From positions 62,001 through 124,150 of the forward strand of contig JBEWZL010000108.1 in NCBI GenBank assembly GCA_045837725.1: a DNA stretch of 62,150 bases. Reading direction: 5' to 3'. The stretch comes from Vermamoeba vermiformis. Lineage: Eukaryota. A model generated the notes under the pieces. It was not told the DNA's origin, did no database searches, and saw only the letters and a program-made list of their open reading frames with translations. Positions 5,122 through 38,355 of this stretch are shown here, in pieces. The position numbers and the translations under genes are program-made. Within the stretch, counting starts at the first letter, position 1. Each line of letters begins with the position of its first letter.

Positions 5122-6853
5122 ATGGCATCGCCCACAAAAAAGAGAAAATTATCGGCGACGAAGAGCGTGGCCGTCGAAGAGCCTCAACAGGACTTGTACG
5201 GGCATTACGAGCTCGAACTCAAAACTATACGCGAAGATCTGAAAGATATACCACATGAGATCGTAAGGCCTTCAATATTTATCGCAGTATTTAAAATGAT
5301 AAATTTAAATATCGCGTAGAAAATCGGCGGCAGATTCCGGATGTTACCGTTGCAACTATCTTAGCTTAATCAGCTAGCGGCTGCCATATAATATTGAATG
5401 ATGTCTAATATATCGTTAATACGTTTTTAGTTGCTAGAAGCCGTCGCCAGAATCGCAGAAGAGAATCTTCAAACGATTATCGATATTAATGACGCTTTAT
5501 TCTATGGTAAGCAATCGATTGCAATGACTTAGCGATAAATATGTCTAATTTAATTATTTAAGCGGTACAAGATGCCAATGCAGCAAAGAGGAACCTCAAG
5601 ACCGTTGATCAAACGGATGCTGGCCAAACCAAAAAAGCGGCCAGCAAGGCTCAAAAGGCCAAAATAGAAGCGCGCGAAATTTCCCCTGAAAAACTACAGA
5701 AGAAAATTCAAGATTTGTTCTCGTACAATACTTGGTTCGTCAGTACGTACCAACATCCGCTACGATCCATCTTTAACAGCTTGATTCTGCAGCTCCATGT
5801 TCATATCATCAGTACAAATATCAAATGAAGGAACGAAAGAATAAGGTAACTATCAATTATGTGTTAATCCGTTGGAATAGAGATTCTAATTGACTCGCGA
5901 ACTAGTTCGTCAAAGTATTCGAGAAGCTTGATCATTGGAAGGAAAAAGCACTGCAATACTCGCAGGTTGGAGAACATGCAACTGCGTATATTATTCTTAG
6001 AGTATTACATGAAGAAGCGAATTTGGTAAGTTCGATCCAGATTCGAGCCAAAGTTTTTTTGGTACCAAATATTAATAATAACATAGAATAAATTCGATAC
6101 TAATGGTGATATGGCACATCTTGATATTGGTGATGATATGGAGCCAAAAGACTGGGTTGAAGGTGTAAAAGAAGATCTGGACGATGAATGGAAAGAACTA
6201 AGCAACAAAGAACAGACTTATTGCAAAGCCAAGCTTAAAATGTATACTATAATATTCATATTAATCAGTAGTACTAACAAGATAACTTCGTTATAGGTAC
6301 GAAGCGGAAAAACCGGTCGAAACTAACAACGCTTCAATTATCGCCAAGTACCCGTTGAACTCGCAACAAGTGAGGAAAGAATTTAGCCTATATTATGAAC
6401 GCGGAGTATTTTACATCGGTAGATTCAAGCTCACTTCCACTTCCAAGGTACATCCACTCAGATGGCATAAAAAAAATTTGAAATTCCGAACTATCGTATC
6501 AAACTAAGTTCGCAATAATCTCCATATACTAATGTATATTTTAGACGACTGAAAAAGGCGTTCTGTACGAGATCCGTGGTCAAGTGGATGCGATGTCCAT
6601 GGGCTTTTACACGTTGACGGTGACCTTCGACGATAAGGAATTACATGATTATACGTGCTCTTGTCCAGTAGGAAGCACAATTCGCAGCTGTTGCAAACAT
6701 ACTTCAGCATTTATGGCTCAGATCGCTAAAGAAAAAGAACAGCTGATCCAAAATTCTCCGGCAAAGCCAGCTGATGCCTCAAAAACGCAAAAATCTAATG
6801 CTAAGACTACCAAGCGAAGCTCTTCGAAAAAAGTCATCGTTATCGATGAATAA
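5122..6853 (+). CDS. SWIM zinc-finger protein, paralog 1 (multi-exon)
   Basis: NLS-like N-terminus (PTKKRK). C-terminal YTCSCPVGSTIRSCCKH fits the CxC-x(n)-CxH SWIM motif. Exons align with the adjacent paralog. Confidence 0.8.
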
Positions 6854-6931
6854 GGATCACATTTCTGGTCAAGCTAAATTTCAGATCGATTTTTTTGTTC
6901 AATTTATTTATCTTGTATATTAAACAACATA

Positions 6932-8786
6932 ATGAGCCGAAGGCCTAATAAAAAGAGAAAATTAAGCGATGCCTCTTCTGAGGCTACTTCAACATCGTCT
7001 GAAGAATACAGCTTCACGCCCTTCAGCATGCGTACCATTCAAGCAGATCTCGAAGCAATTCCTCATGATATTGTAAGTAATCGCGTAATAATAATTAAAT
7101 CGATAAACCACTATTTTATTGCATATAGTACGAATATATCACATTTTACTTAATTTTTTATTTTTAGCTGATCAGATCCATCATCCACAGCAGTAGAACT
7201 GATGTGAAATTCCTCGGGTCACTTAATTCCATCGAGAAAGGTACCTAAACCTGTAATAACATTCTTAATATTATCATAATTAAACCAAGTACCTTTTCCT
7301 TTTAGTGATGCATCCGTCAAAGAACGACGAAGAAGAGACCTATGATGATGATTTCATCGAGAATACGAAACCGAATGCATATGAATATCGTCAATACAGC
7401 CCGATGAAGATCCACAAGTACGTCAATGAGCTGTTCCATAATTACAAATGGCTACCACGTAAGCACTTTGCGGAAATTTTTATCAATTTTAATTACTGTA
7501 AATTACAATTATTTAATATATGGTTATTAGCAAGCGAGCCCGCCATGTGGAACGACTGGATCCCTGAAAAAGATCATCGCGAAAGTACTGTAAGCATAAT
7601 TTATTCTATATGTAATATTTAGTAAGTTTCGCACAAGGGAGGGGTTCATGAGGGAGCGCCCGAGCCCTGGCGAGGAGAAATCCTCCCGAGAAAAACGCTT
7701 CTCCCGGGGAAAAAGAGGGAAACAACAAGGAGCCGAAAAAAAAAGGTTTTTACCACGTGAAGCCAAAAAAAGAAAAAACCGACGCGGGAAGCCCTTGCGT
7801 TACGTGTTCAAGACCGATCTTCAAAGAGATTCACCACGCATGTGGATTTTTTCTCTCCCTAGGGAGAGAAACAGCTGCTTTCCTCCCGTTTTGTAAATAA
7901 AGGAAAGTTCATTTCCGACAATACGTGAGCAGAAACCTAATATGCACCACTAAATACTATTTTTGGCAGTACAACTCGTTCATTCGATTGTTGAATCGAT
8001 TGCTTAAGAAAGCAAAACATCTCTCTGCTGCTGGTGAGAACGCTAGTGCATATATTATTCTTAGCGTACTAGACGATGTAGCTACTCCGGTAAGCATTAT
8101 CTAATACGCCGGCTGCGAAACGTGTCCCAGATCCAAAATTCTGAGAATTTTTTTTCAGAGCAGATTTGACGCCAACGGAGATCTGAGCATTGATGAAGAC
8201 GACGAAGATGCCGAAGAGCTAGATATTGATATTACACCCGAAGAGTTTTTAGAAGACCTCGAAACAACTCTTGACGACGTGACTGACAAATTGTCGGATG
8301 CAGAGATGAAATATTGCGAGCAGAAACTGAAATGGTGCGTAAGTTTAAGTGTTAATAAAATATCTAATATATATAATAGGTATCAACCTAATGAGAAGAA
8401 TAACAAACAGGCAATTAAAGCCTTTCCGCTGACCGCAGATCAAGTCGAATCCATGTTCGATTCTCGGTCTTTCGGTAGAGCCGAATATTATATCGGTAAA
8501 TTCCATAAAATCGGTTCAATAATACAAGTAAGTCTCGTAAATTCCTATTATTGAGGCTAAAACTAATTTTTGGATCAAGACGAAGAACAAGCAGAAAGTC
8601 TACGAGATCCACGCGCGAGTTGACGCAGTATCAATGTCCGGAGAATACTACCAGACTATTATATTTGACTCTAAGAGAATTATCGACTGTAATTGCTCGT
8701 GTCCTGTTGGCTACAGGTGCAAACATCTTGCTGCACTAATGTTGCAGATCTGCGGCCAACGCAAGAAAAAGCAACAGCAAGCCTAG
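6932..8786 (+). CDS. SWIM zinc-finger protein, paralog 2 (tandem duplicate)
   Basis: PNKKRKLS start. TIQADLEAIPHDI matches TIREDLKDIPHEI of paralog 1, and AYIILSVL matches AYIILRVL. DCNCSCPVGYRCKH SWIM motif. Stop TAG at 8784-8786. Confidence 0.8.
7637..7892 (+). ncRNA. Candidate structured ncRNA or non-autonomous insertion inside an intron of SWIM paralog 2
   Basis: Closing stem GGGAGG (7637-7642)/CCTCCC (7882-7887) followed by GTTTT. GAGGA-GAAA-TCCTC GNRA hairpin at 7672-7685. Perfect TTCTCTCC-CTAG-GGAGAGAA palindrome at 7851-7870. Host intron is 380 nt versus 60 nt for the equivalent intron in paralog 1. Confidence 0.45.
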
Positions 8787-9665: not shown

Positions 9666-11170
9666 ATGAGCGACTCTTTGCGCTGCCGTTGTATCGACAT
9701 TCCTCAAGACACCGCGGAACCCGAGTGGACCAATCAAGGACTGGCCGACATGAATGGCGAGGTCGGATGGGTCTTCATTTATGAACATGACGGACCAGAC
9801 CCTGGCATAATCAAAAGGCTAGGACAATAATCATAATAATAATTTTTGTCTTGTACCCGAGAATTATTATTGTGTACTGAATTATAAAATTGTATTGGTA
9901 GGATAAAGTACGAGTTCCTTCGTTATATTTAGCCTAGTCATTATTAACCTACAAAGCCAGCATTCGAAATTTAAAGAGAGAAACGATTGGAAATTAATTC
10001 AGCTAACTATGAATGGCTGAAGCGCCAAGAGTAGATGATTAATCGAGTGCATCAAGACATAGCGTCATATATATATAAGTTGGAGGTTGACGACAAGCAT
10101 GGCGCTGGAGCGTTGTTCAGGATCTGGATTCAACATCCGTCGCCAGGAAGATCAATTAGGTTCGTAAATTACTTATGGACGCTATTATATGGTCATTATA
10201 CTAACTGCCTTCGCTCGTAAATAATGCACTTGAGCTTCGCTTGCCTACGGAAACTTTACCGTTGAGGAACTTCGGATTACGAACCTATCCGAGTGGGTAT
10301 TACATCTATATTTGTATCCTCATATTAGCCCCATGGTATTAACACTGACGTTCAGTATAATACCTTTTCAGCACAAACGAGACAGTCCCGTCTGAAGGTA
10401 ACGAATTAGTACAACGAGTCATAATAATATGCAACAAACGCAATTCTAACTTACTACAGTCAATGCATTACTAGTCATTACTTAATTCCTATATTAGTAA
10501 ATCGGACCTAAAGTGCGTGCAATCTTGACAGCTTTGTAGAGTCCCTTGGACACGACATCGAACTTCCTTTGACCGCACGGCGACACTTCTGGCCAGTCGT
10601 ATCGTCAACGCGATTAAACACTCGCTAGTGGCAATCCTGCAGTAATAATGACGCATTGACGGCGCGGTGGTGGGCCAGAACATCCATATTGGCTGCTTTC
10701 AGTTTTAGTCGCTACGAGTGGCTTCATCGCTGCCATCACTATTAACACTCAATACGGCGAGCTTGTTCGATGAGTGGCTTATAACAGTGCGTTCATCCTG
10801 TTGCAGTGTTTCCTCGAGACTTTGATGACCTTAATCGTGTCACGAATTCTTTCGCTAGACATGAGCGTGTTCCTCATTGCTTTTACGTCGCTCTGGTTCG
10901 TTTGTCTGTCAACAGCATGCATGCGCTTCTAGCACGACGAAAGCTGGTCTTTGTCCTTGGCTGGCTCTGGTGGCACTCGAGATTGCTATTGGGATTAGGC
11001 TTTACTTGGCCTGGCGGTGGCATTGGTTTCTTTGCGGCTACAAGGAGAATTTTGATAGGCTGGCAAACGCCCCGTGATCACGCGAAGTCGGTGGTAACCC
11101 AGGCGCCATCTTACTTCCGCATCCACAATCTTACACCTAATATTGATTTTCTTTGGAGCGTTTAATTTGT
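9666..11170. pseudogene. Probable decayed coding sequence(s): 54-codon ORF 9666..9830 (+) plus broken exon-like fragments
   Basis: Coding-like composition and a promoter-like CCAAT box, but no continuous spliceable frame could be built. Frequent stops in 10500-11160. Confidence 0.3.
9701..9720 (+). repeat. 20-nt exact dispersed repeat, copy 1 (TCCTCAAGACACCGCGGAAC)
   Basis: Identical to 15552-15571. Confidence 0.85.
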
Positions 11171-12270
11171 TTGAATTCTTTGGGACTTGTTCTTTTGATT
11201 TAGTTAATTAATTGCTTCGAGGTGTGGATGACTGGTCTGAAGATTCGTTTTTAGCCTCTGGAGGGCCGGATTATTATTTATATTTATAAATTAAATAATG
11301 TTACATTATTATGAATAAACCAATGTTATAAGAACGAGTTTTGTCTGATTCCAATAGGAGATTGATCAGGAATCCGATTGTCTAGCTTATTAGAAATAAC
11401 GGTTCACCTAAGTCCGCAAGATTAGAACTACAAACACGAAAGTCGAGTGTCCTCAATCCATCGGTTTGTGTTAATACATTGCTGCATCAATTTTCGATTG
11501 ACGGGTTGTCAGCTCGAGTCAGAGGTTATGAATTCCGTTTCTATTTACGGAGGCAGTTCCGATTAACTATAACTGAATAATACTACGTATTGGCACTAAT
11601 AACACTACACAGACAAACTTATAAAGATATTCTCGCGATACATCCAAGTCACACTAACCAACCGCTTGAATCACCAGTGTAATGTGCGCCAGTATCTTGA
11701 ACATATTCAATGTGTATGTTAACGTTAATACACGGTCCGTTTTGAAAAAACGTTGATTCTTCTATTCACCGCTGGATATTTTCGTAGGTAATTTGTTACG
11801 GCAGTTTTCGACTTGAAAATTTCCTTTCTAATCGATGAGCTTGGGAACGTTTAACGGACTACGATTGCTAGGATAATTAAGTAGACTCGTGAGATGGGGG
11901 TAATCGCAACTTTATTCCATTGGATAAGATCTGCACTAGATCCATCCGGAAAAAGAAGTAACGACTCCTCTTACTTGCAAAATTGAGGGAGTGTTACGTA
12001 CAAAACTGAAATAAACTACAATATAAAACAAAATAAGCTTGCCACAACGTGAGCACGCAGGATCGCCGTCAATATAATCTTGGGACTGAAACTGAAATTC
12101 GATAGCGTTCCAGATTTCGATAGCTGTAGATCGACTTTGTGATGATGCCGCGATGCATATATATGACGTCATTATATATATCTCACTGGTATCGTTGATT
12201 GCGCCAACAAAAGGATAGAATTTCTGTTTCGCTGAAAGGAGGGGGCTGGATCACATCTTGCAGTAATCTC

Positions 12271-17200: not shown

Positions 17201-19618
17201 AGTTTAAGGTATTATCCCGTGGTTAGATCTGGATTTGGATCCAGACAATTAAATCATCGAAATTTAAGCAATTTATTAATTTTGACTATGCAGCGGAAAT
17301 GCGCAATTTATGTGGGAATAATTGCACAAAGAATACCGCAAAATTTATACGCTTGATTGCACGCCAAATCAAAATTCAAATCTTCCAAAATTAAATTGTT
17401 GACATTTTTGGTTCTGTGAATAAAACTTACCAATGCCATTATCATACATCAATTGAATAAGTTCCGATTCTGTCAAGCAACTCGGCGCGGTGGTTTTGTC
17501 GTGGTACATCTCCAATACTGATGGCAAATACTGTTCGCCCTTCTTAAAGTTCGGGATCGTCTTGTCCGACCACTTCTCATAGCGGTAGATCTCGAGAAAG
17601 TTATAAGCAGTAATCGCGAGACCTTTGCAATGGAACATCTCGCCGGCGATGCTAATTTCAACCTATTCGCAAATGTAAGCATGGTTCTTCGTGATTTAAA
17701 AAAAGATCGTGATTTACTGACAGAATGTCACACACGCGTACAAAATATAATTTATCAAAAGGGATTTAAAACTTACGGTGGTCTCCTGACCGAGCGCGTC
17801 ATCAGAACAGCAAGCTAAGAAATGACGCACTATAAGTTCGTAGACCGCTTTGTCCCGTCCGTCTAAAATTGCGTGTTTTGTAGGGTGGATCGGCGGATGC
17901 GAATTATCATCGGTTTTGCCAGGCTTCGGGTTTCTAAAGCCTTGGTCGAGTAACCTTAACATATGTTAGTATACGAATCCTATTCACACTCCGAAACTTA
18001 CCTTCGTGCGTAGTCTCCCCAGATCGGATCGTCCTTTTGCACGTTGATCAGACCGCGAAAGTCCGTGTTCGGAGAAAATTTACTCGTTTCGGTTCTCGGG
18101 TAACTAATGAAACCTTGTTGATAAAGTCGTTCCGCGATTTCCATTGTGTCGTCCGAAGATATTTTTAACTTTTGCGCGCACAGTTTTTGCAGCTGCACCG
18201 TCGTCAATGGGAACGGCCGACTAAATATTGAATCATATAAGTAAACATATTATACGCCAATAATGACAAAAGAATACTGCAAATATGAATATAAACATGA
18301 CTTACTATTTGCGAGTTGGTTTTGAATTGACATTGACGACTGTAGCAGTCGGATTATCGACGCACAACTCGTAGAGTATGAGCACCGAGGCGTGGTCAAA
18401 CAGTCTCTTGCGGTCCCAGTTCAGACTCGCTGATTGGTCGTCTTTATCGATGACCACTTTGATGCCCCAGTAGTCCTCGGGCTTGAACACTTTATGCTTC
18501 CAGTACCGATCCACGATGAATCCTAGCGTTGGAAATTGACACGGACCTAATAGGGTAAAAAACAAACAAGTAAGTCACGTGACATTTTGAACAAACTTTT
18601 CTTGCTATTACGTACCATAACTGACGATCTCAGAAATGCCAGTAAATTTGTTTCTGAATCGCATTGTTTGAAAGCGCGTGAACGCAGCGCCGATACGCAA
18701 ATCTAATTCTTGACGAGCATCAACCGCCAGCGAATCCAGTTCATTCGGCTTCGCTAAATTTTGACACGCTCGGTGAATCTCACTAAAGATCACGTTAGAT
18801 CTCGAATATGAAATAAAAGATGATTATATTATTAGTACTTACGCTGGAATCAATGCTGAAAAGTGAGCGCGATAGATCACGTTGAGTCTCGGATTCGCTT
18901 GTTTGCAGACACTAACGACTTCAAAAGCAATATTTTCACCTTCTCTGTCACAATCCAGCCATAAAATGAGCCACTGACAGCCTTTAATTTCTGCTTCGAG
19001 TGTCTTCTTCAGATTGATTTTGGACTGAATAGTAACCTTGTTAGTCATGAACTTTGCTATGTTCTATTTGCAGACGGCAGTCTTAACATGTATATTATAC
19101 CTCTGATATCTCTTTGTACACTGGTGCTTCAAAAAGTGTAACTGGATCCACACGTTCCCACGACTTGTACTCGGGAGGATAAGCGTAGTTCATCATGTGT
19201 CCTGTGACCGATGTAACGACCATATGTACTTGTTGGCCTTTAATATCATAGTCGAACTCGAATATCGGATTGTAAGGTGATTTTCCAGTGCGCTAGAGGA
19301 AAAAAGTTAGCGATCGAGCAGATCCAAAAACCAATTAATTGCAAAAATATAATTTTTAACTAATCGCGCTGTATTATAGTAAATTAACGTTAATTTACTA
19401 CTGCGAAGCAAATAATATTCTAGGAAATAATTTGTTTATTGGTATTTTCAAAACAGAAGGGCTATAATTATAGAGAGGCTTAAATTAATCTATATAAATG
19501 CTAATATAAATTTACAAATTATTATTACCTTTGTAGCATTTCGTGAGGACAAGATGTCGGTGATCGCTTTTGCAACCGAGGGTTTCTCTGCCACATTAAG
19601 CGCTCGTATTGATCTCAT
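14275..19618 (-). CDS. TOP3A: DNA topoisomerase III alpha (type IA) with C-terminal Zn ribbons, GRF finger and CCHC knuckle
   Basis: [28 protein letters not shown], catalytic [25 protein letters not shown]4 ribbons, GRF-type [19 protein letters not shown] and [14 protein letters not shown]. Confidence 0.97.
15419..15635 (-). other. U12-type (minor spliceosome) GT-AG intron in TOP3A
   Basis: Donor GTATCCTT at 15635-15628. Branch-like CCTTAAC at 15439-15433, about 15 nt before the AG. Removal restores the frame ([18 protein letters not shown]). Confidence 0.8.
15552..15571 (+). repeat. 20-nt exact dispersed repeat, copy 2 (inside the TOP3A U12 intron)
   Basis: Identical to 9701-9720. Confidence 0.85.
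16693..16743 (-). other. GC-AG intron in TOP3A
   Basis: GAG|GCAAGT donor and ATAG| acceptor. Joins RLLDE to ALGRYY in frame. Confidence 0.8.
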
Positions 19619-22930: not shown

Positions 22931-24768
22931 TTATTTCCTTCGTTTTCTATCCTCTTCTGGCTCAGGACTAACATAAAAAATATTAGCGTTTGTAATTTTT
23001 CTTGAGGGTTAGGGTTTGGTTTCACCGTGGCAAATAAAAATTATTTAATACGTACCTATTGCTTCGCTTCCGCCTTCGGCTGCTGCTATCTGAAGTACGG
23101 CTCGATCTGTCCTTATCTTTCTCGCGTTCCTTTTCTCTGTCTCGTCGCTCACGTGATCTTGAACGAGATCTCCTACTAACGACCATGTCAGTAAGTTTGA
23201 AACACTAGTGTAACAGACGCAATATCGTGCACTACGTACCTGCCCTCAGTCTTCGAGTCACGTGGTCTGTCACTTCGTTCTCGCGATGATCTTCGCTCGC
23301 CAGATCGTTCAGCTGCAATGAAAATATGACGTTAGTAAGTGACCCATCAAGCTTCTTTCACGGCACTACTTACGCGGTCTGTGGTCTCGTCTTTCACGTC
23401 TGTCATCTTCACGTTCTCTGAAAGGCTCGCCTCCAGCTAAGGACGTCACGGTTAGTGCGTGTCATTCAAAATTATGGCTTGGTACTTACGAGGGAAATGC
23501 ATGCCAGGTGGTGGAGGACCACGGAATGGTGGCATACCAGGAGGTGGTCCGCGTCTGTCACCGCGCATGAAAGGTGGTGGAGGTCCGCCTCGGAAGCCAC
23601 GTGGAGGAATGCCCATGCCCATTGGTCCTGGCATCATGCCCGGCGGGAACTGGCCTGGGAAGTGTGGTGGCATGCCCGGGGCTAAAATGAAAATTTAGAT
23701 TTAATGCTTTATTGAGCTAATAGCATTATTTGATGTTTACCTTCGCCGTGACCATCACCGCCCTCGTCTTGTCCTTCAGCGACGACTTGAATGACCGAAT
23801 CATCTGACTCGCGATTACGACGCACAGCTATTTATGGAAATATTAGTAATGAGACCTAGAGTTATTATGCGTGGAAAGTTTTTGGTCGAAGTTTGACACG
23901 TGTCACATGTCACTTTGTACTTACGTTTTCTCATCATCATGTTCGGTGGCATTTGAACGTTACCTTCTCCAGGCTTAGACTGTGCCCCTTCAAAGACCTA
24001 TATATAATATAAGTGTTAAAAGCATTATCCAATGTGAGTTCAGTATCAAAAAGTACGTGCCTTAATTTTACCCAAATTATTTATCTCGCTCTTCATTTGC
24101 ATTTGTTTCAAGCAATATGCGCGCCAAGTCTCTTCAGTGAATCCATAATTAAAGTAATCAGTCGGATCCGCACCAGGCTTCAACCAGGGCTTCTCTTCCA
24201 TACTATCAATATCTAACTCGACTAAAGTCCTTCCAGCTTGTCGTTGCTGCATGATCTGCGGCTGCAATATTTGCAGAGGGTTGTAAGGCTGGCCAGTCAA
24301 CTGCGAGCCAACAACGCCTTGCCCTGGTTGACCGGAGTTTGACTTGTTGAGGACGTACTTGTTGGCGCCGGGTTGGTTGACGCCTTGTCGGAAGAAAGTC
24401 TTGTTGCTCGATTGACCTGGCTGCACGCTTTCAACGGTGTCTGTATTAATTACAATTTCAAAGTCATCTTCGTTGTCACTCTCTTCGTCGTCATCGCCGT
24501 CCTCTTTTTTAACTTTGTCTTCCATTTTTACATCACTAAATGCGATAAAATAAGTCTTAATATCGTCTATGATATATATGGAGTATAATATTAGGACTTA
24601 CTTTGAGGCATCGTTAGTATTTACATCGTTAGTGTTGTTGTCTGCATCCGGCAAATAAACATCATTATCGCCTTCAGGATTATATGCTTCTTCTTCTGGA
24701 TGATACTCTTCATCAGGTTTATATGATTCGGGATTATACGAATCGTCTGGTTTGTAGTCTTCCGCCAT
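22931..24768 (-). CDS. FIP1: Pre-mRNA 3'-end processing factor Fip1
   Basis: Fip1 signature [34 protein letters not shown]. Acidic N-terminus, Pro-rich middle and RD/RE/RS-rich tail. Confidence 0.95.
23998..24060 (-). other. GC-AG intron in FIP1
   Basis: AAG|GCACGT donor and ATAG| acceptor give in-frame GKIK-VFEG. The nearby GT, 4 nt downstream, would shift the frame. Confidence 0.7.
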
Positions 24769-35820: not shown

Positions 35821-37982
35821 TTACCAAAATCTGAATTGTAATAAGTTCAGATTCGATAGGGCGTATATTCCAAGTACTTGACATACGAAGATAATGCCCC
35901 ACAAAATGATTTCCCATCTCTGCAAGAGCAGATCTTTTCGTAGGTAAAAAATCAACAATAATACAGAAGTCGCTAATACTAAAATAACTTTGAGCAACAA
36001 AAATAGATTAAAAGCGACGATTTGCGAGGGTAGGTTATAGTACAAGGCGTATCTATCACCAAACACTATAATCTCGCAGATAATTGCGCCAAAGGCAATC
36101 GTTCCAAGCACGAAATAAATTACAATTTTGAAGTGCTCCACGTAACTTCCAAATTTGGAAATTTTCTTCGTTTCGGTGAACGGCGCGCATTTGCTTTGAA
36201 CCAACTTGACGATAGTGACGATGCATAGGGCAAGCAAGAATAATGAAGCTAAGCCATCGAATGCTATAAGAACGAGGTTGGTAATCAAATATTGACCCGG
36301 ATCCAGCGCGTAAGAAGTGCTGATCCAACCACTACTCGGCCACATATCAATGTAGAGGAGCTTATCGTCGTCATCAAAATTAACGATCATGAACGTAGTT
36401 TGATTGGTCTGACTCGGATCTAACTGCAATACGACTTGGTTCTTCGTGATGGTAGATGGAGCGGGCAGATCCACTTGATAAAATTGTTGATAGTAGTTGG
36501 CTTGTACTCCACCATTCATAGCTCGGTAAGTAGAAGATCCGAAGATTGTGTTGAACTTTGAAGCGCCATACATGACCGCAGGCACACCTCCGAACTGGTT
36601 ATCATAGAGTTGGTCCAATCTTGAGTCTAATGCAGCAGATCTGGCAAAAGTGACTGGTTGCAGCGCGTACTGGCCGTAGAACTGATCCATAAACGAAACA
36701 AATGCTTCGTGGGAGTATCCTGAAGCTAATTGAATAGGAGTGACGCCAATATAGAAAAATCCTTCCATTGTATCGGGCAAAATCGCAACGTGAGTTGAAA
36801 ATTCGACCATCGATCCGGGATGCGACAAAATTCTTTGACTTCTGTAGGTTTCAGTGAAGAATTGAAGAGCGATACCACCAAAGATGCCAGGAATAAGACC
36901 GGGATAGTACGTAGGAGTATGCATAAGTACGGCTGTTTGTGGATTCTGGAACAAATTGGTTCCGTTTAACAGATGCGCAGTTCTGAAGAACAAAAAGAGT
37001 TATATTATATTAGAAACAATAGTATGATCCTTATATGACTTCGACTTACAAAAATTTGCTCATGTCGCCCAGTGTAACGACAAGATCTCCCGAAGCAAGG
37101 CCTGACACCCCGTAAGGCTCACCTAAGTCTCTAGCATTTGGCGGGAAGCAAACGGTAGCATAGTTATCAGTAGCCATCTCGTAGAAGAACTTTGTACCGG
37201 TCATGCCGAGCGGTTCGAAGATGTGGATGCGCATGTACTCGGCGAGTTTGAGGCCTGTGATTTGTTCTATGACTAAAGCTTGCAACGTAGATCCGAGGTT
37301 TGCATATCCAGCCATCACTCCGGGTTCACGAACGAAAGGAAGAAGTTGTCTTTGAATAAATACTTCGATGTCTTGATTGTAAGGAGATCCAACCTTTAAA
37401 ATAATTTTAAAATTAGTTAAATAATAAGTGCTAACGAATAGGCTTGTTTTCAGAGTTATTAATGCAGCTAATTAATTTTTAAAATTTGATATCCAAATTT
37501 ACCTCGACAAAACTATTGATGATTCGGTTGTCTAAGCCCAATCGGTGCGTCAATAAATGAATAATCTTCAATCGATTGATTCTATCGTCGTTGGCCATAT
37601 TAGCAGCATCTACAATCCAAGGAACGTGCTTTACTACGGCATCTTCAAGATCGAGCATTCCTTTGTCGTATAACTGCATTAAAGCAGTAGCAGTGAACAA
37701 TTTAGTCACACTGCCTACTCTATATGCAGTTTCGGTTGATGGTTCGTGTTGCCATTGGTTGCCATCCAGATCGTAGCATTTGCCATTTATCTTCCAGGCA
37801 GCGTCGCTCGAGTTTTGATCATTGACTTTGAGATATAAAACTGAAGCAGACGAAAGGCTTTCTTGTTCAATATAAGACGTAGAAAAGCCATCGAACCAAG
37901 TATCAATTTGATTTTGATTCGCGGATAGACAAAAGAAAAATAAATAACCAAACGTAAATACAACCGATAATATGTGTTTCAT
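35821..37982 (-). CDS. Signal-peptide serine hydrolase of the beta-lactamase/AmpC-PBP fold with about four C-terminal TM helices
   Basis: YRVGSVTK (SxxK), LLTHRLG, GYANLG (YxN), IFEPLGM and SHPG (HxG). Hydrophobic C-terminal helices. Three exons. Confidence 0.88.
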
Positions 37983-38355
37983 TTTGGTGTTGTTAATACA
38001 TTATAACACGTTGATTGACCGTTATTTATGCCAGCGTTCTTTCAATTTCGTTATTGTAACGCTTGTCGCGGATTGGTCAGAAATCACGCTGATTACAAAC
38101 TTTGCTTAAGGAAACGCAATTTCGTAATTACGTGCGGATAGCTCGTTAGCTTGCGGTTACCTGTTTCACACACAATTCAATTATCGATTTGTTAAATTCG
38201 TGATGATCGGGAAGACTGGCTGAATCCGTAAGCCCTACTCTTTACATTATTGAAAGGAGAATTATTTGTCGTTTGAAACCGAAAATTTTAGTGCCTAATT
38301 TGGGTACTGGTCAATAGCTAATACTAATATAACATAATGCAGCTTCATATTGAAG

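Follow-up and report, generated by a model that had tools for sequence, protein, structure and literature searches.

Introner-like elements degenerate until they become unrecognizable, according to the part of PMC3609843 drawn on here. The telomerase RNA of Caenorhabditis sits in an intron of nmy-2, and the sections of PMC12921731 used for this comparison credit it with a TAAGCCTAAGC-type template, predicted H/ACA boxes, and conservation in 21 species. Stable intronic sequence RNAs are intron fragments that persist after splicing and need no snoRNA boxes, as they are portrayed in the cited portions of PMC7137253 and PMC4621838. Yeast zipper stems are pairings within an over-long intron that bring the 5′ splice site and the branch point together (PMC2536676, PMC12350175, PMC12311795, each in the part cited). 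The intron described below is compared with these four systems.

The locus lies in a 62,150-nt stretch of DNA that was analyzed as a whole and is called the window. The window is eukaryotic DNA with short GT..AG introns, and Pfam families recognized in it are Fip1, ABC transporter, PHO80-type cyclin, LRR proteins, a beta-lactamase-fold protein, and the SWIM zinc finger. The beta-lactamase fold (PF00144) is found in two adjacent open frames at 37046–38000 on the minus strand, with E values of 1e-16 and 3e-14. Two SWIM-domain genes are arranged in tandem, head to tail, and were modeled by a search over splice-site choices for open frames. The features that define the host gene and its neighbor are as follows.

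5122–6853, plus strand: paralog 1, from its ATG at 5122 to the end of its stop codon at 6853; a single open model of 394 codons.
5846–5905, plus strand: the matching intron of paralog 1, 60 nt; placed by the single-solution gene model and the exon alignment.
6932–8786, plus strand: paralog 2, from its ATG at 6932 to the end of its stop codon at 8786; four near-identical models of 353–358 codons.
7531–7589, plus strand: upstream exon of paralog 2; placed by the gene model, with 7533–7569 covered by a contig from run X5.
7590–7969, plus strand: intron 4 of paralog 2, host of the block; a 380-nt intron in phase 0 with the ends GTAAGC...GGCAG, as predicted by the gene model.
7970–8089, plus strand: downstream exon of paralog 2; placed by the gene model and the exon alignment to paralog 1.

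The gene models give each paralog seven introns in matching order, measuring 168, 56, 50, 60, 61, 55, and 97 nt in paralog 1 and 95, 65, 72, 380, 69, 45, and 52 nt in the best model of paralog 2. The SWIM exons of the two paralogs are 45% identical (E = 2e-17). The exons directly 3′ of intron 7590–7969 and of its paralog 1 counterpart are 42% identical (E = 2e-8) with a 3-residue offset, and the position of intron 5846–5905 matches that of 7590–7969 within 3 codons; the short exons upstream of the matched introns gave no BLASTP alignment between the paralogs. Excision of 7590–7969 leaves an open 358-codon frame that ends in the SWIM domain, and readthrough from the upstream exon into the intron meets a stop at 7620–7622. 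At 380 nt, this intron is 2.3 times as long as the next longest of the 14, the other 13 measuring 45–168 nt. The gene models and the exon alignment bear out the claim of the first-pass annotation that it is about 320 nt longer than the equivalent intron at 5846–5905. Thirteen of the 14 modeled introns start with GTA and one starts with GTG. The first intron of paralog 1 (5263–5430, 168 nt) is the second longest of the 14; its core is somewhat richer in GC, and it shows no similarity to the block. The tandem pair is very tight, with a gap of about 80 nt between the paralog 1 stop and the paralog 2 ATG (6853–6932).

Sequencing runs were inspected for reads over the locus. No run listed as containing the stretch is identified as RNA. 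No reads fall over 7284–8200, exons included, in X21 and X23, two RNA runs that carry the same species label. Runs X5 and X6, which contain only a small share of the stretch, cover the exons only and not the block. A 168-nt contig from X5, a run under the label of another organism that is only presumed to be RNA, matches paralog 2 over 7330–7569 with two differing letters and lacks intron 7459–7530. This intron is the neighbor of 7590–7969 and the only one with transcript support. Paralog 2 or a near-identical gene is probably transcribed and spliced somewhere. Four DNA runs from one sample contain 0.20–0.70 of the sampled words of 7284–8554, a figure that describes this stretch as a whole and not the block itself. 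At the protein level, comparison of the paralog 2 SWIM exon with longer proteins gave 295 word candidates, none of which scored, and a search of metagenome contigs for orthologous loci using the protein of exon 8159–8527 gave 594 pattern matches, none of which was confirmed.

The sequence that enlarges the host intron has a GC content of 0.50 and a purine content of 0.58, compared with a GC content of 0.31 in the remaining 124 nt of the intron, which agrees with its earlier description as GC/purine-rich. T accounts for 47 of its 256 nt. Its parts are listed below.

7637–7892, plus strand: the GC-/purine-rich block, 256 nt, with edges defined by composition only.
7637–7740, plus strand: the 5′ half, purine-rich, with repeated GGGAG and CTCCCG-A-run motifs.
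7637 and 7880, plus strand: the arms of a proposed terminal stem, GGGAGGGG at 7637 and TTCCTCCC at 7880, each found once in the window.
7672–7685, plus strand: GAGGA-GAAA-TCCTC, a 5-bp hairpin with a GAAA loop, present in the MFE structure.
7745–7815, plus strand: nested stems GGUUUU/AAGACC and CACGU/ACGUG around the hairpin 7781–7801, present in the MFE and centroid structures with mean pair probabilities of 0.61–0.82.
7781, plus strand: motif GACGCGGGAAGCCCTTGCGTT, once in the window.
7817, plus strand: motif ATCTTCAAAGAGAT, once in the window.
7817–7845, plus strand: hairpins ATCTTC-AAAG-AGAT and CCAC-GCAT-GTGG, with mean pair probabilities of 0.87 and 0.88.
7834, plus strand: motif CCACGCATGTGG, once in the window.
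7850–7871, no strand assigned: perfect 22-nt palindrome TTTCTCTCCCT/AGGGAGAGAAA, with a mean pair probability of 0.90.

All of the motifs reported earlier for the block were recovered at their positions, each once in the window. The palindrome had been described as a 20-nt element at 7851–7870; its position was correct, and its true extent is the perfect 22-mer at 7850–7871. Among the 21 perfect palindromes of at least 14 nt in the window it ranks second in length, after a perfect AT-rich 24-mer (TAGTAAATTAACGTTAATTTACTA) at 19377–19400. The hairpin CCAC-GCAT-GTGG is directly followed by AUUUUUU. The 5′ half contains the direct repeat CTCCCGAGAAAAA/CTCCCGGGGAAAA, the block as a whole carries GGGAG three times and CTCCC four times, and no tandem repeats were found within it. 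Motif YCTCCCGRRRAAAAA has three matches in the window compared with 1.62 expected, a count equaled in 23 of 100 shuffles. With an observed/expected ratio of 1.2 over the whole window, the block does not stand out in its CpG content. Elsewhere in the window, a stretch of about 700 nt at 10470–11190 has a GC content of 0.48–0.53, no codon-usage signal in any frame, and no Rfam match; its open frames reach at most 126 codons, on the plus strand, and it may represent atypical coding sequence, a UTR, or a non-coding transcript.

The plus strand of the block folds with an energy of −83.6 kcal/mol compared with −74.2 ± 4.85 kcal/mol for its shuffles (z = −1.94; 7 of 200 shuffles as good), and the minus strand has z = +0.41 with 126 of 200 shuffles as good. 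This comparison with shuffles, which the first-pass annotation had suggested as a check, gives a marginal result for the plus strand, and the difference between the strands is consistent with the earlier proposal that the plus strand is favored. The whole intron 7590–7969 behaves similarly on the plus strand (z = −1.82; 4 of 100 shuffles as good). The 3′ half (7740–7880) accounts for the signal, with z = −2.30 on the plus strand (4 of 200 shuffles as good) and z = −0.37 on the minus strand, and the 5′ half (7637–7740) is no better than its shuffles (z = −0.16 on the plus strand and +1.18 on the minus strand). For a background ranking, the MFE was regressed on GC over 968 overlapping 256-nt windows on both strands, or 1936 strand-windows. 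The GC-adjusted MFE residual of the block plus strand is −1.88 sd, the 2.8th percentile of the 1936 strand-windows, and many windows are more extreme, reaching −3 to −4 sd, several of them over long ORFs. With this z-score and percentile, and with its structure limited to the 3′ half, the block had been overstated as highly structured.

Pair probabilities were calculated with the partition function over the whole intron. Four robust local hairpins are predicted at 7781–7801, 7817–7830, 7834–7845, and 7852–7869 with mean pair probabilities of 0.82–0.90, and the hairpins noted earlier at 7781, 7817, and 7834 are among them. The GAAA tetraloop hairpin at 7672–7685 is present in the MFE structure as had been proposed, but it is only moderate in strength (pair probabilities 0.30–0.84, mean 0.63). 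The terminal stem proposed to close the block has a pair probability of 0.00–0.12; CCUCCC is able to pair with several GGGAG copies, and the copy that closes changes with the fold context. An H-type pseudoknot had been suggested from the interleaving of GGTTTTT/AAAAACC with CACGTGA/TTACGTG. The pairing GGTTTTT/AAAAACC has a probability of only 0.01 in the nested model because GGUUUU prefers AAGACC at 7810–7815, and therefore the pseudoknot is neither needed nor supported by this nested model, which cannot assess pseudoknots. A mirtron or miRNA precursor has a hairpin of roughly 60–70 nt whose stem spans some 22 bp or more. The longest stem of the block, in the palindrome, is 9–11 bp, and a mirtron or intronic miRNA precursor was rejected. 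The local hairpins of the block are real and its sense strand has a modest advantage in folding, yet it is not an outlier.

Known RNA classes were searched in the window and in the host intron. Rfam 15 returned no matches at the gathering score over the whole 62-kb window, in line with the failure of the first-pass annotation to match the element to known RNAs. A permissive search of 7500–8050 (E ≤ 10) returned five matches, all under half of their gathering scores. The best of these is whalefall-1 (18.6 bits compared with a gathering score of 37) on the minus strand, which corresponds to the palindrome at 7850–7871 alone, and the palindrome is the sole part of the block that draws a weak Rfam match. 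A C/D snoRNA is defined by a C box RUGAUGA near the 5′ end, a D box CUGA near the 3′ end, and a terminal stem; neither UGAUG nor CUGA occurs on either strand of 7590–7969. The Sm-site consensus with its trailing G and the hammerhead core CUGAUGA are also absent from both strands of the intron. An H/ACA RNA consists of a hairpin, an ANANNA hinge, a second hairpin, and an ACA located 3 nt from the 3′ end, with an internal pocket in each hairpin. An ACA at 7871 comes after the palindrome hairpin. An H/ACA snoRNA or scaRNA was rejected because the hairpins of the block are uninterrupted stems of 4–9 bp without pockets and no Rfam H/ACA model matches. To count as a telomerase template, a sequence had to complement the telomere repeat over no less than one repeat plus 2 nt. 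None of 29 candidate telomere repeats, a list outside which the host's own repeat may lie, has such a template within the block, and the window contains no telomeric array. The only template match is AAACCTAA at 7933–7940, in the AT-rich intron tail outside the block, with 1.4 repeats of the TTAGG complement; we estimate that this match is at chance level given the number of motifs tried.

Several reading frames are open over the block. An ORF at 7600–7896 is open across it on the plus strand, and the open frames comprise two on the plus strand and one on the minus strand, of 82–98 codons. The segment 7627–7887 amounts to 87 codons whose phase fits the exons on either side, and it is bordered by an AG at 7625–7626 and a GT at 7888–7889. 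In the codon-usage test, no frame of the block differs clearly from the others, with scores between −0.06 and −0.26 for the six; chunks read in frame from the training genes reach 0.23 ± 0.12, and the seven held-out host exons used as a control all give 0.08–0.32 in their correct frames. Low-complexity Fip1 exons at 23040–23680 on the minus strand (Arg/Asp/Glu-rich and Pro/Gly/Met-rich), whose identity was confirmed by protein search, score as non-coding in this test, and therefore the codon test alone is not conclusive. Pfam detects no family at E ≤ 0.01 in the four ORFs over the block, and at a cutoff of E ≤ 1 it gives one chance-level row, Peptidase_C41 (E = 0.086). The 87-residue reading has no phmmer matches among 1.84 billion representatives, and a word-index protein search with the 98-residue ORF gave two candidates, neither of which scored. 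The small number of plus-strand stop codons in the block is probably due to its T-poor composition.

Signs of a mobile or foreign origin were sought at the block ends and in other collections. There is no second copy of the block in the 62-kb window, where the other matches of the intron have E ≥ 0.81, save the palindrome against itself. The block ends, GGGAGG and CCTCCC, have 6 bp of DNA complementarity only. Terminal inverted repeats of a MITE or DNA-transposon-type introner are thus not seen, and the repeat finder returned no terminal pair for the block; the inverted pair that the finder returned around the block (I5, 7613–7623/7949–7959) lies in the AT-rich flanks and not at the block ends. 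The best candidate for a target-site duplication is TTTAGTAAGT (7618–7627) compared with TTTTGTAAAT (7889–7898), which are AT-rich and identical at 8 of 10 positions. By our own estimate, this pair would be at chance level once the freedom in choosing the boundaries is counted. The block ends in CCTCCCGTTTT without a terminal A-tail, and its A-runs are internal, at 7735–7743 and 7765–7778. A tRNA-derived SINE or retroposon, which begins with a tRNA-like part carrying A and B boxes and has an A-rich 3′ end, was rejected because the block lacks a terminal A-tail and ARAGORN detects nothing tRNA-like in the window. With the block as blastn query, plasmids and E. coli genomes gave nothing, and phages gave a single 27-nt match at chance level (E = 0.3). 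Exact 20–24-nt pieces of the block have no matches in metagenome, viral, or bacterial/archaeal contigs, in scans that miss diverged copies. The absence of relatives is weak evidence because the collections searched are not known to include the organism or its close relatives.

The explanation that we favor, with confidence balanced evenly between right and wrong, is that the block entered an existing intron as an orphan, non-coding insertion and is spliced out with it. The intron would predate the duplication that gave rise to the two SWIM paralogs, and lineage-specific non-coding DNA would have entered it later. The block would then be transcribed only within the pre-mRNA and removed with the intron, without an RNA product of its own. 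Its hairpins, which include the 22-nt palindrome, three short inverted repeats, and GGGAG/CTCCC in both orientations, would be properties of the inserted DNA and would not point to an RNA fold under selection. The insert itself could be a decayed mobile-element remnant or filler DNA from break repair. This explanation is favored because the intron is 380 nt compared with 45–168 nt for the other 13, because the GC content of the block is 0.50 compared with 0.31 in the rest of the intron, because the structure is marginal and confined to the 3′ half with long-range stems at about 0.1, and because the block gave no Rfam, snoRNA-box, Sm, tRNA, codon-usage, Pfam, or protein signal. The anomalous size, the break in composition, the lack of a coding signal, and the lack of a relative are observations; from the composition and the comparison of the paralogs we infer that the block was inserted, and we likewise infer that it has no function. 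Three points stand against an orphan insert. The plus strand folds better than its shuffles and the minus strand does not, an asymmetry that plain palindromic DNA would lack, although a G-/U-rich sense strand could give it by chance. No hallmark of an insertion mechanism was found, neither terminal inverted repeats of more than 6 bp nor a clean target-site duplication nor a terminal A-tail. The paralogs that were compared have diverged, their introns are unalignable, and no orthologous site lacking the block has come to light.

Neither of the two readings offered by the first-pass annotation, an intron-encoded ncRNA and a structured mobile insertion, gained positive support from the checks that were run. 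In the first of these, the 3′ half (approximately 7745–7875) or the whole block would be trimmed from the intron after splicing and would persist as a stable RNA, much like snoRNAs, stable intronic sequence RNAs, or the Caenorhabditis telomerase RNA. The block lies on the sense strand within an intron, and its plus strand alone beats the shuffles, a fold bias that is the only positive evidence for such an RNA. The four hairpins with mean pair probabilities of 0.82–0.90 and the order of hairpin, AUUUUUU, hairpin, and ACA at 7834–7873, which is loosely snRNA- or H/ACA-like, fit the idea, and the cited sections of PMC12921731 provide a precedent for an intronic RNA gene that had gone unrecognized. 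However, the block has no Rfam match, no C/D boxes, no Sm consensus with a trailing G, only short uninterrupted stems without an H/ACA internal pocket, no template for the 29 candidate telomere repeats, and fold z-scores that are unremarkable against the rest of the window; with no relatives there is also no covariation. An intron-derived stable RNA is unlikely on this balance. The narrower proposal that the 3′ half (approximately 7745–7875, plus strand) would be a young, lineage-specific structured RNA, released by splicing and belonging to no described class, is less likely still.

The remaining alternatives place a function in the DNA or the mRNA, or question the block itself. The block could act in cis as an intronic enhancer or promoter, or it could provide an alternative transcript end, where retention of the intron and polyadenylation within it would yield a truncated isoform with the block as its 3′ UTR. 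Candidate sites are CACGTG at 7754–7759, GCGGGAAG at 7784–7791, and AATAAA at 7896–7901 just past the block, which we read as E-box-like, E2F-site-like, and poly(A)-signal-like, respectively, and the stop at 7620–7622 means that a retained intron would give a protein lacking the SWIM domain. These motifs are short and expected by chance at the length of the block, and its CpG content is unremarkable next to the window-wide ratio of 1.2; we regard the proposal as decidedly unlikely. A cassette or poison exon at 7627–7887 is very improbable. Its 87 codons are in phase with the gene model within the open ORF 7600–7896 and have an AG and a GT at their borders, but such an exon requires an upstream intron of only 37 nt, when none of the 14 modeled introns is that short, and a GTTTTG donor where the modeled introns use GTA (13 of 14) or GTG (1 of 14). 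No frame stands out in codon usage, there are no protein relatives, and the openness of a second plus-strand frame and a minus-strand frame (82–90 codons) points to T-poor composition as the cause. Equally far-fetched is the idea that the block reflects an assembly artefact or foreign DNA fused to the intron sequence. The sharp break in composition would fit such a join, and the block is so far known from the assembly alone. Against it, four DNA runs of one sample carry sampled words of the stretch 7284–8554 at the fractions given above, which do not show the block itself, and plasmids, phages, and E. coli genomes yielded no match, nor did exact scans of bacterial/archaeal, viral, and metagenome contigs.

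If the block is a mere insert, as the favored explanation holds, it is an ordinary example of an intron that has grown by capturing DNA, in a genome whose introns are short, and would be useful mainly as a marker for strain comparison. If a stable RNA does arise from it, it would be one more intron-hidden non-coding RNA missed by family searches, and nothing makes that likely.

Among the described systems, zipper stems resemble the locus in that looping out of the block would leave 124 nt of intron. They differ in pairing strength, since the candidate closing stems of the block have probabilities of 0.00–0.18 and the likely branch point would be hidden within one of them; looping by a zipper stem to keep the intron spliceable was rejected on these closing pairs of 0.18 or less. 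Introner-like and MITE insertions into introns, as presented in the parts of PMC3609843 and PMC9860276 cited here, are alike in having an over-long host intron and stable predicted hairpins. Such families have many near-identical copies, whereas the block has one copy in the 62-kb window. DNA-transposon-type introners have terminal inverted repeats and target-site duplications, compared with 6-bp complementarity and no clear duplication at the block. Unlike introners, the block occupies an intron position that would predate the insert. Were the block stable as RNA, it would by analogy join the stable intronic sequence RNAs, a class that the cited portions of its literature define by RNA stability. 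The block has no template for 29 candidate repeats inside it, no H/ACA architecture, and no known relatives, in contrast to the Caenorhabditis telomerase RNA. The two are alike, as far as the cited sections of PMC12921731 describe the latter, in being a sense-strand non-coding stretch of several hundred nucleotides that enlarges one intron and is missed by standard family searches. If the proposal of an RNA from the 3′ half were true, it would be a new intron-hitchhiking non-coding RNA with a lifestyle comparable to that of the intron-hosted telomerase RNA of Caenorhabditis.
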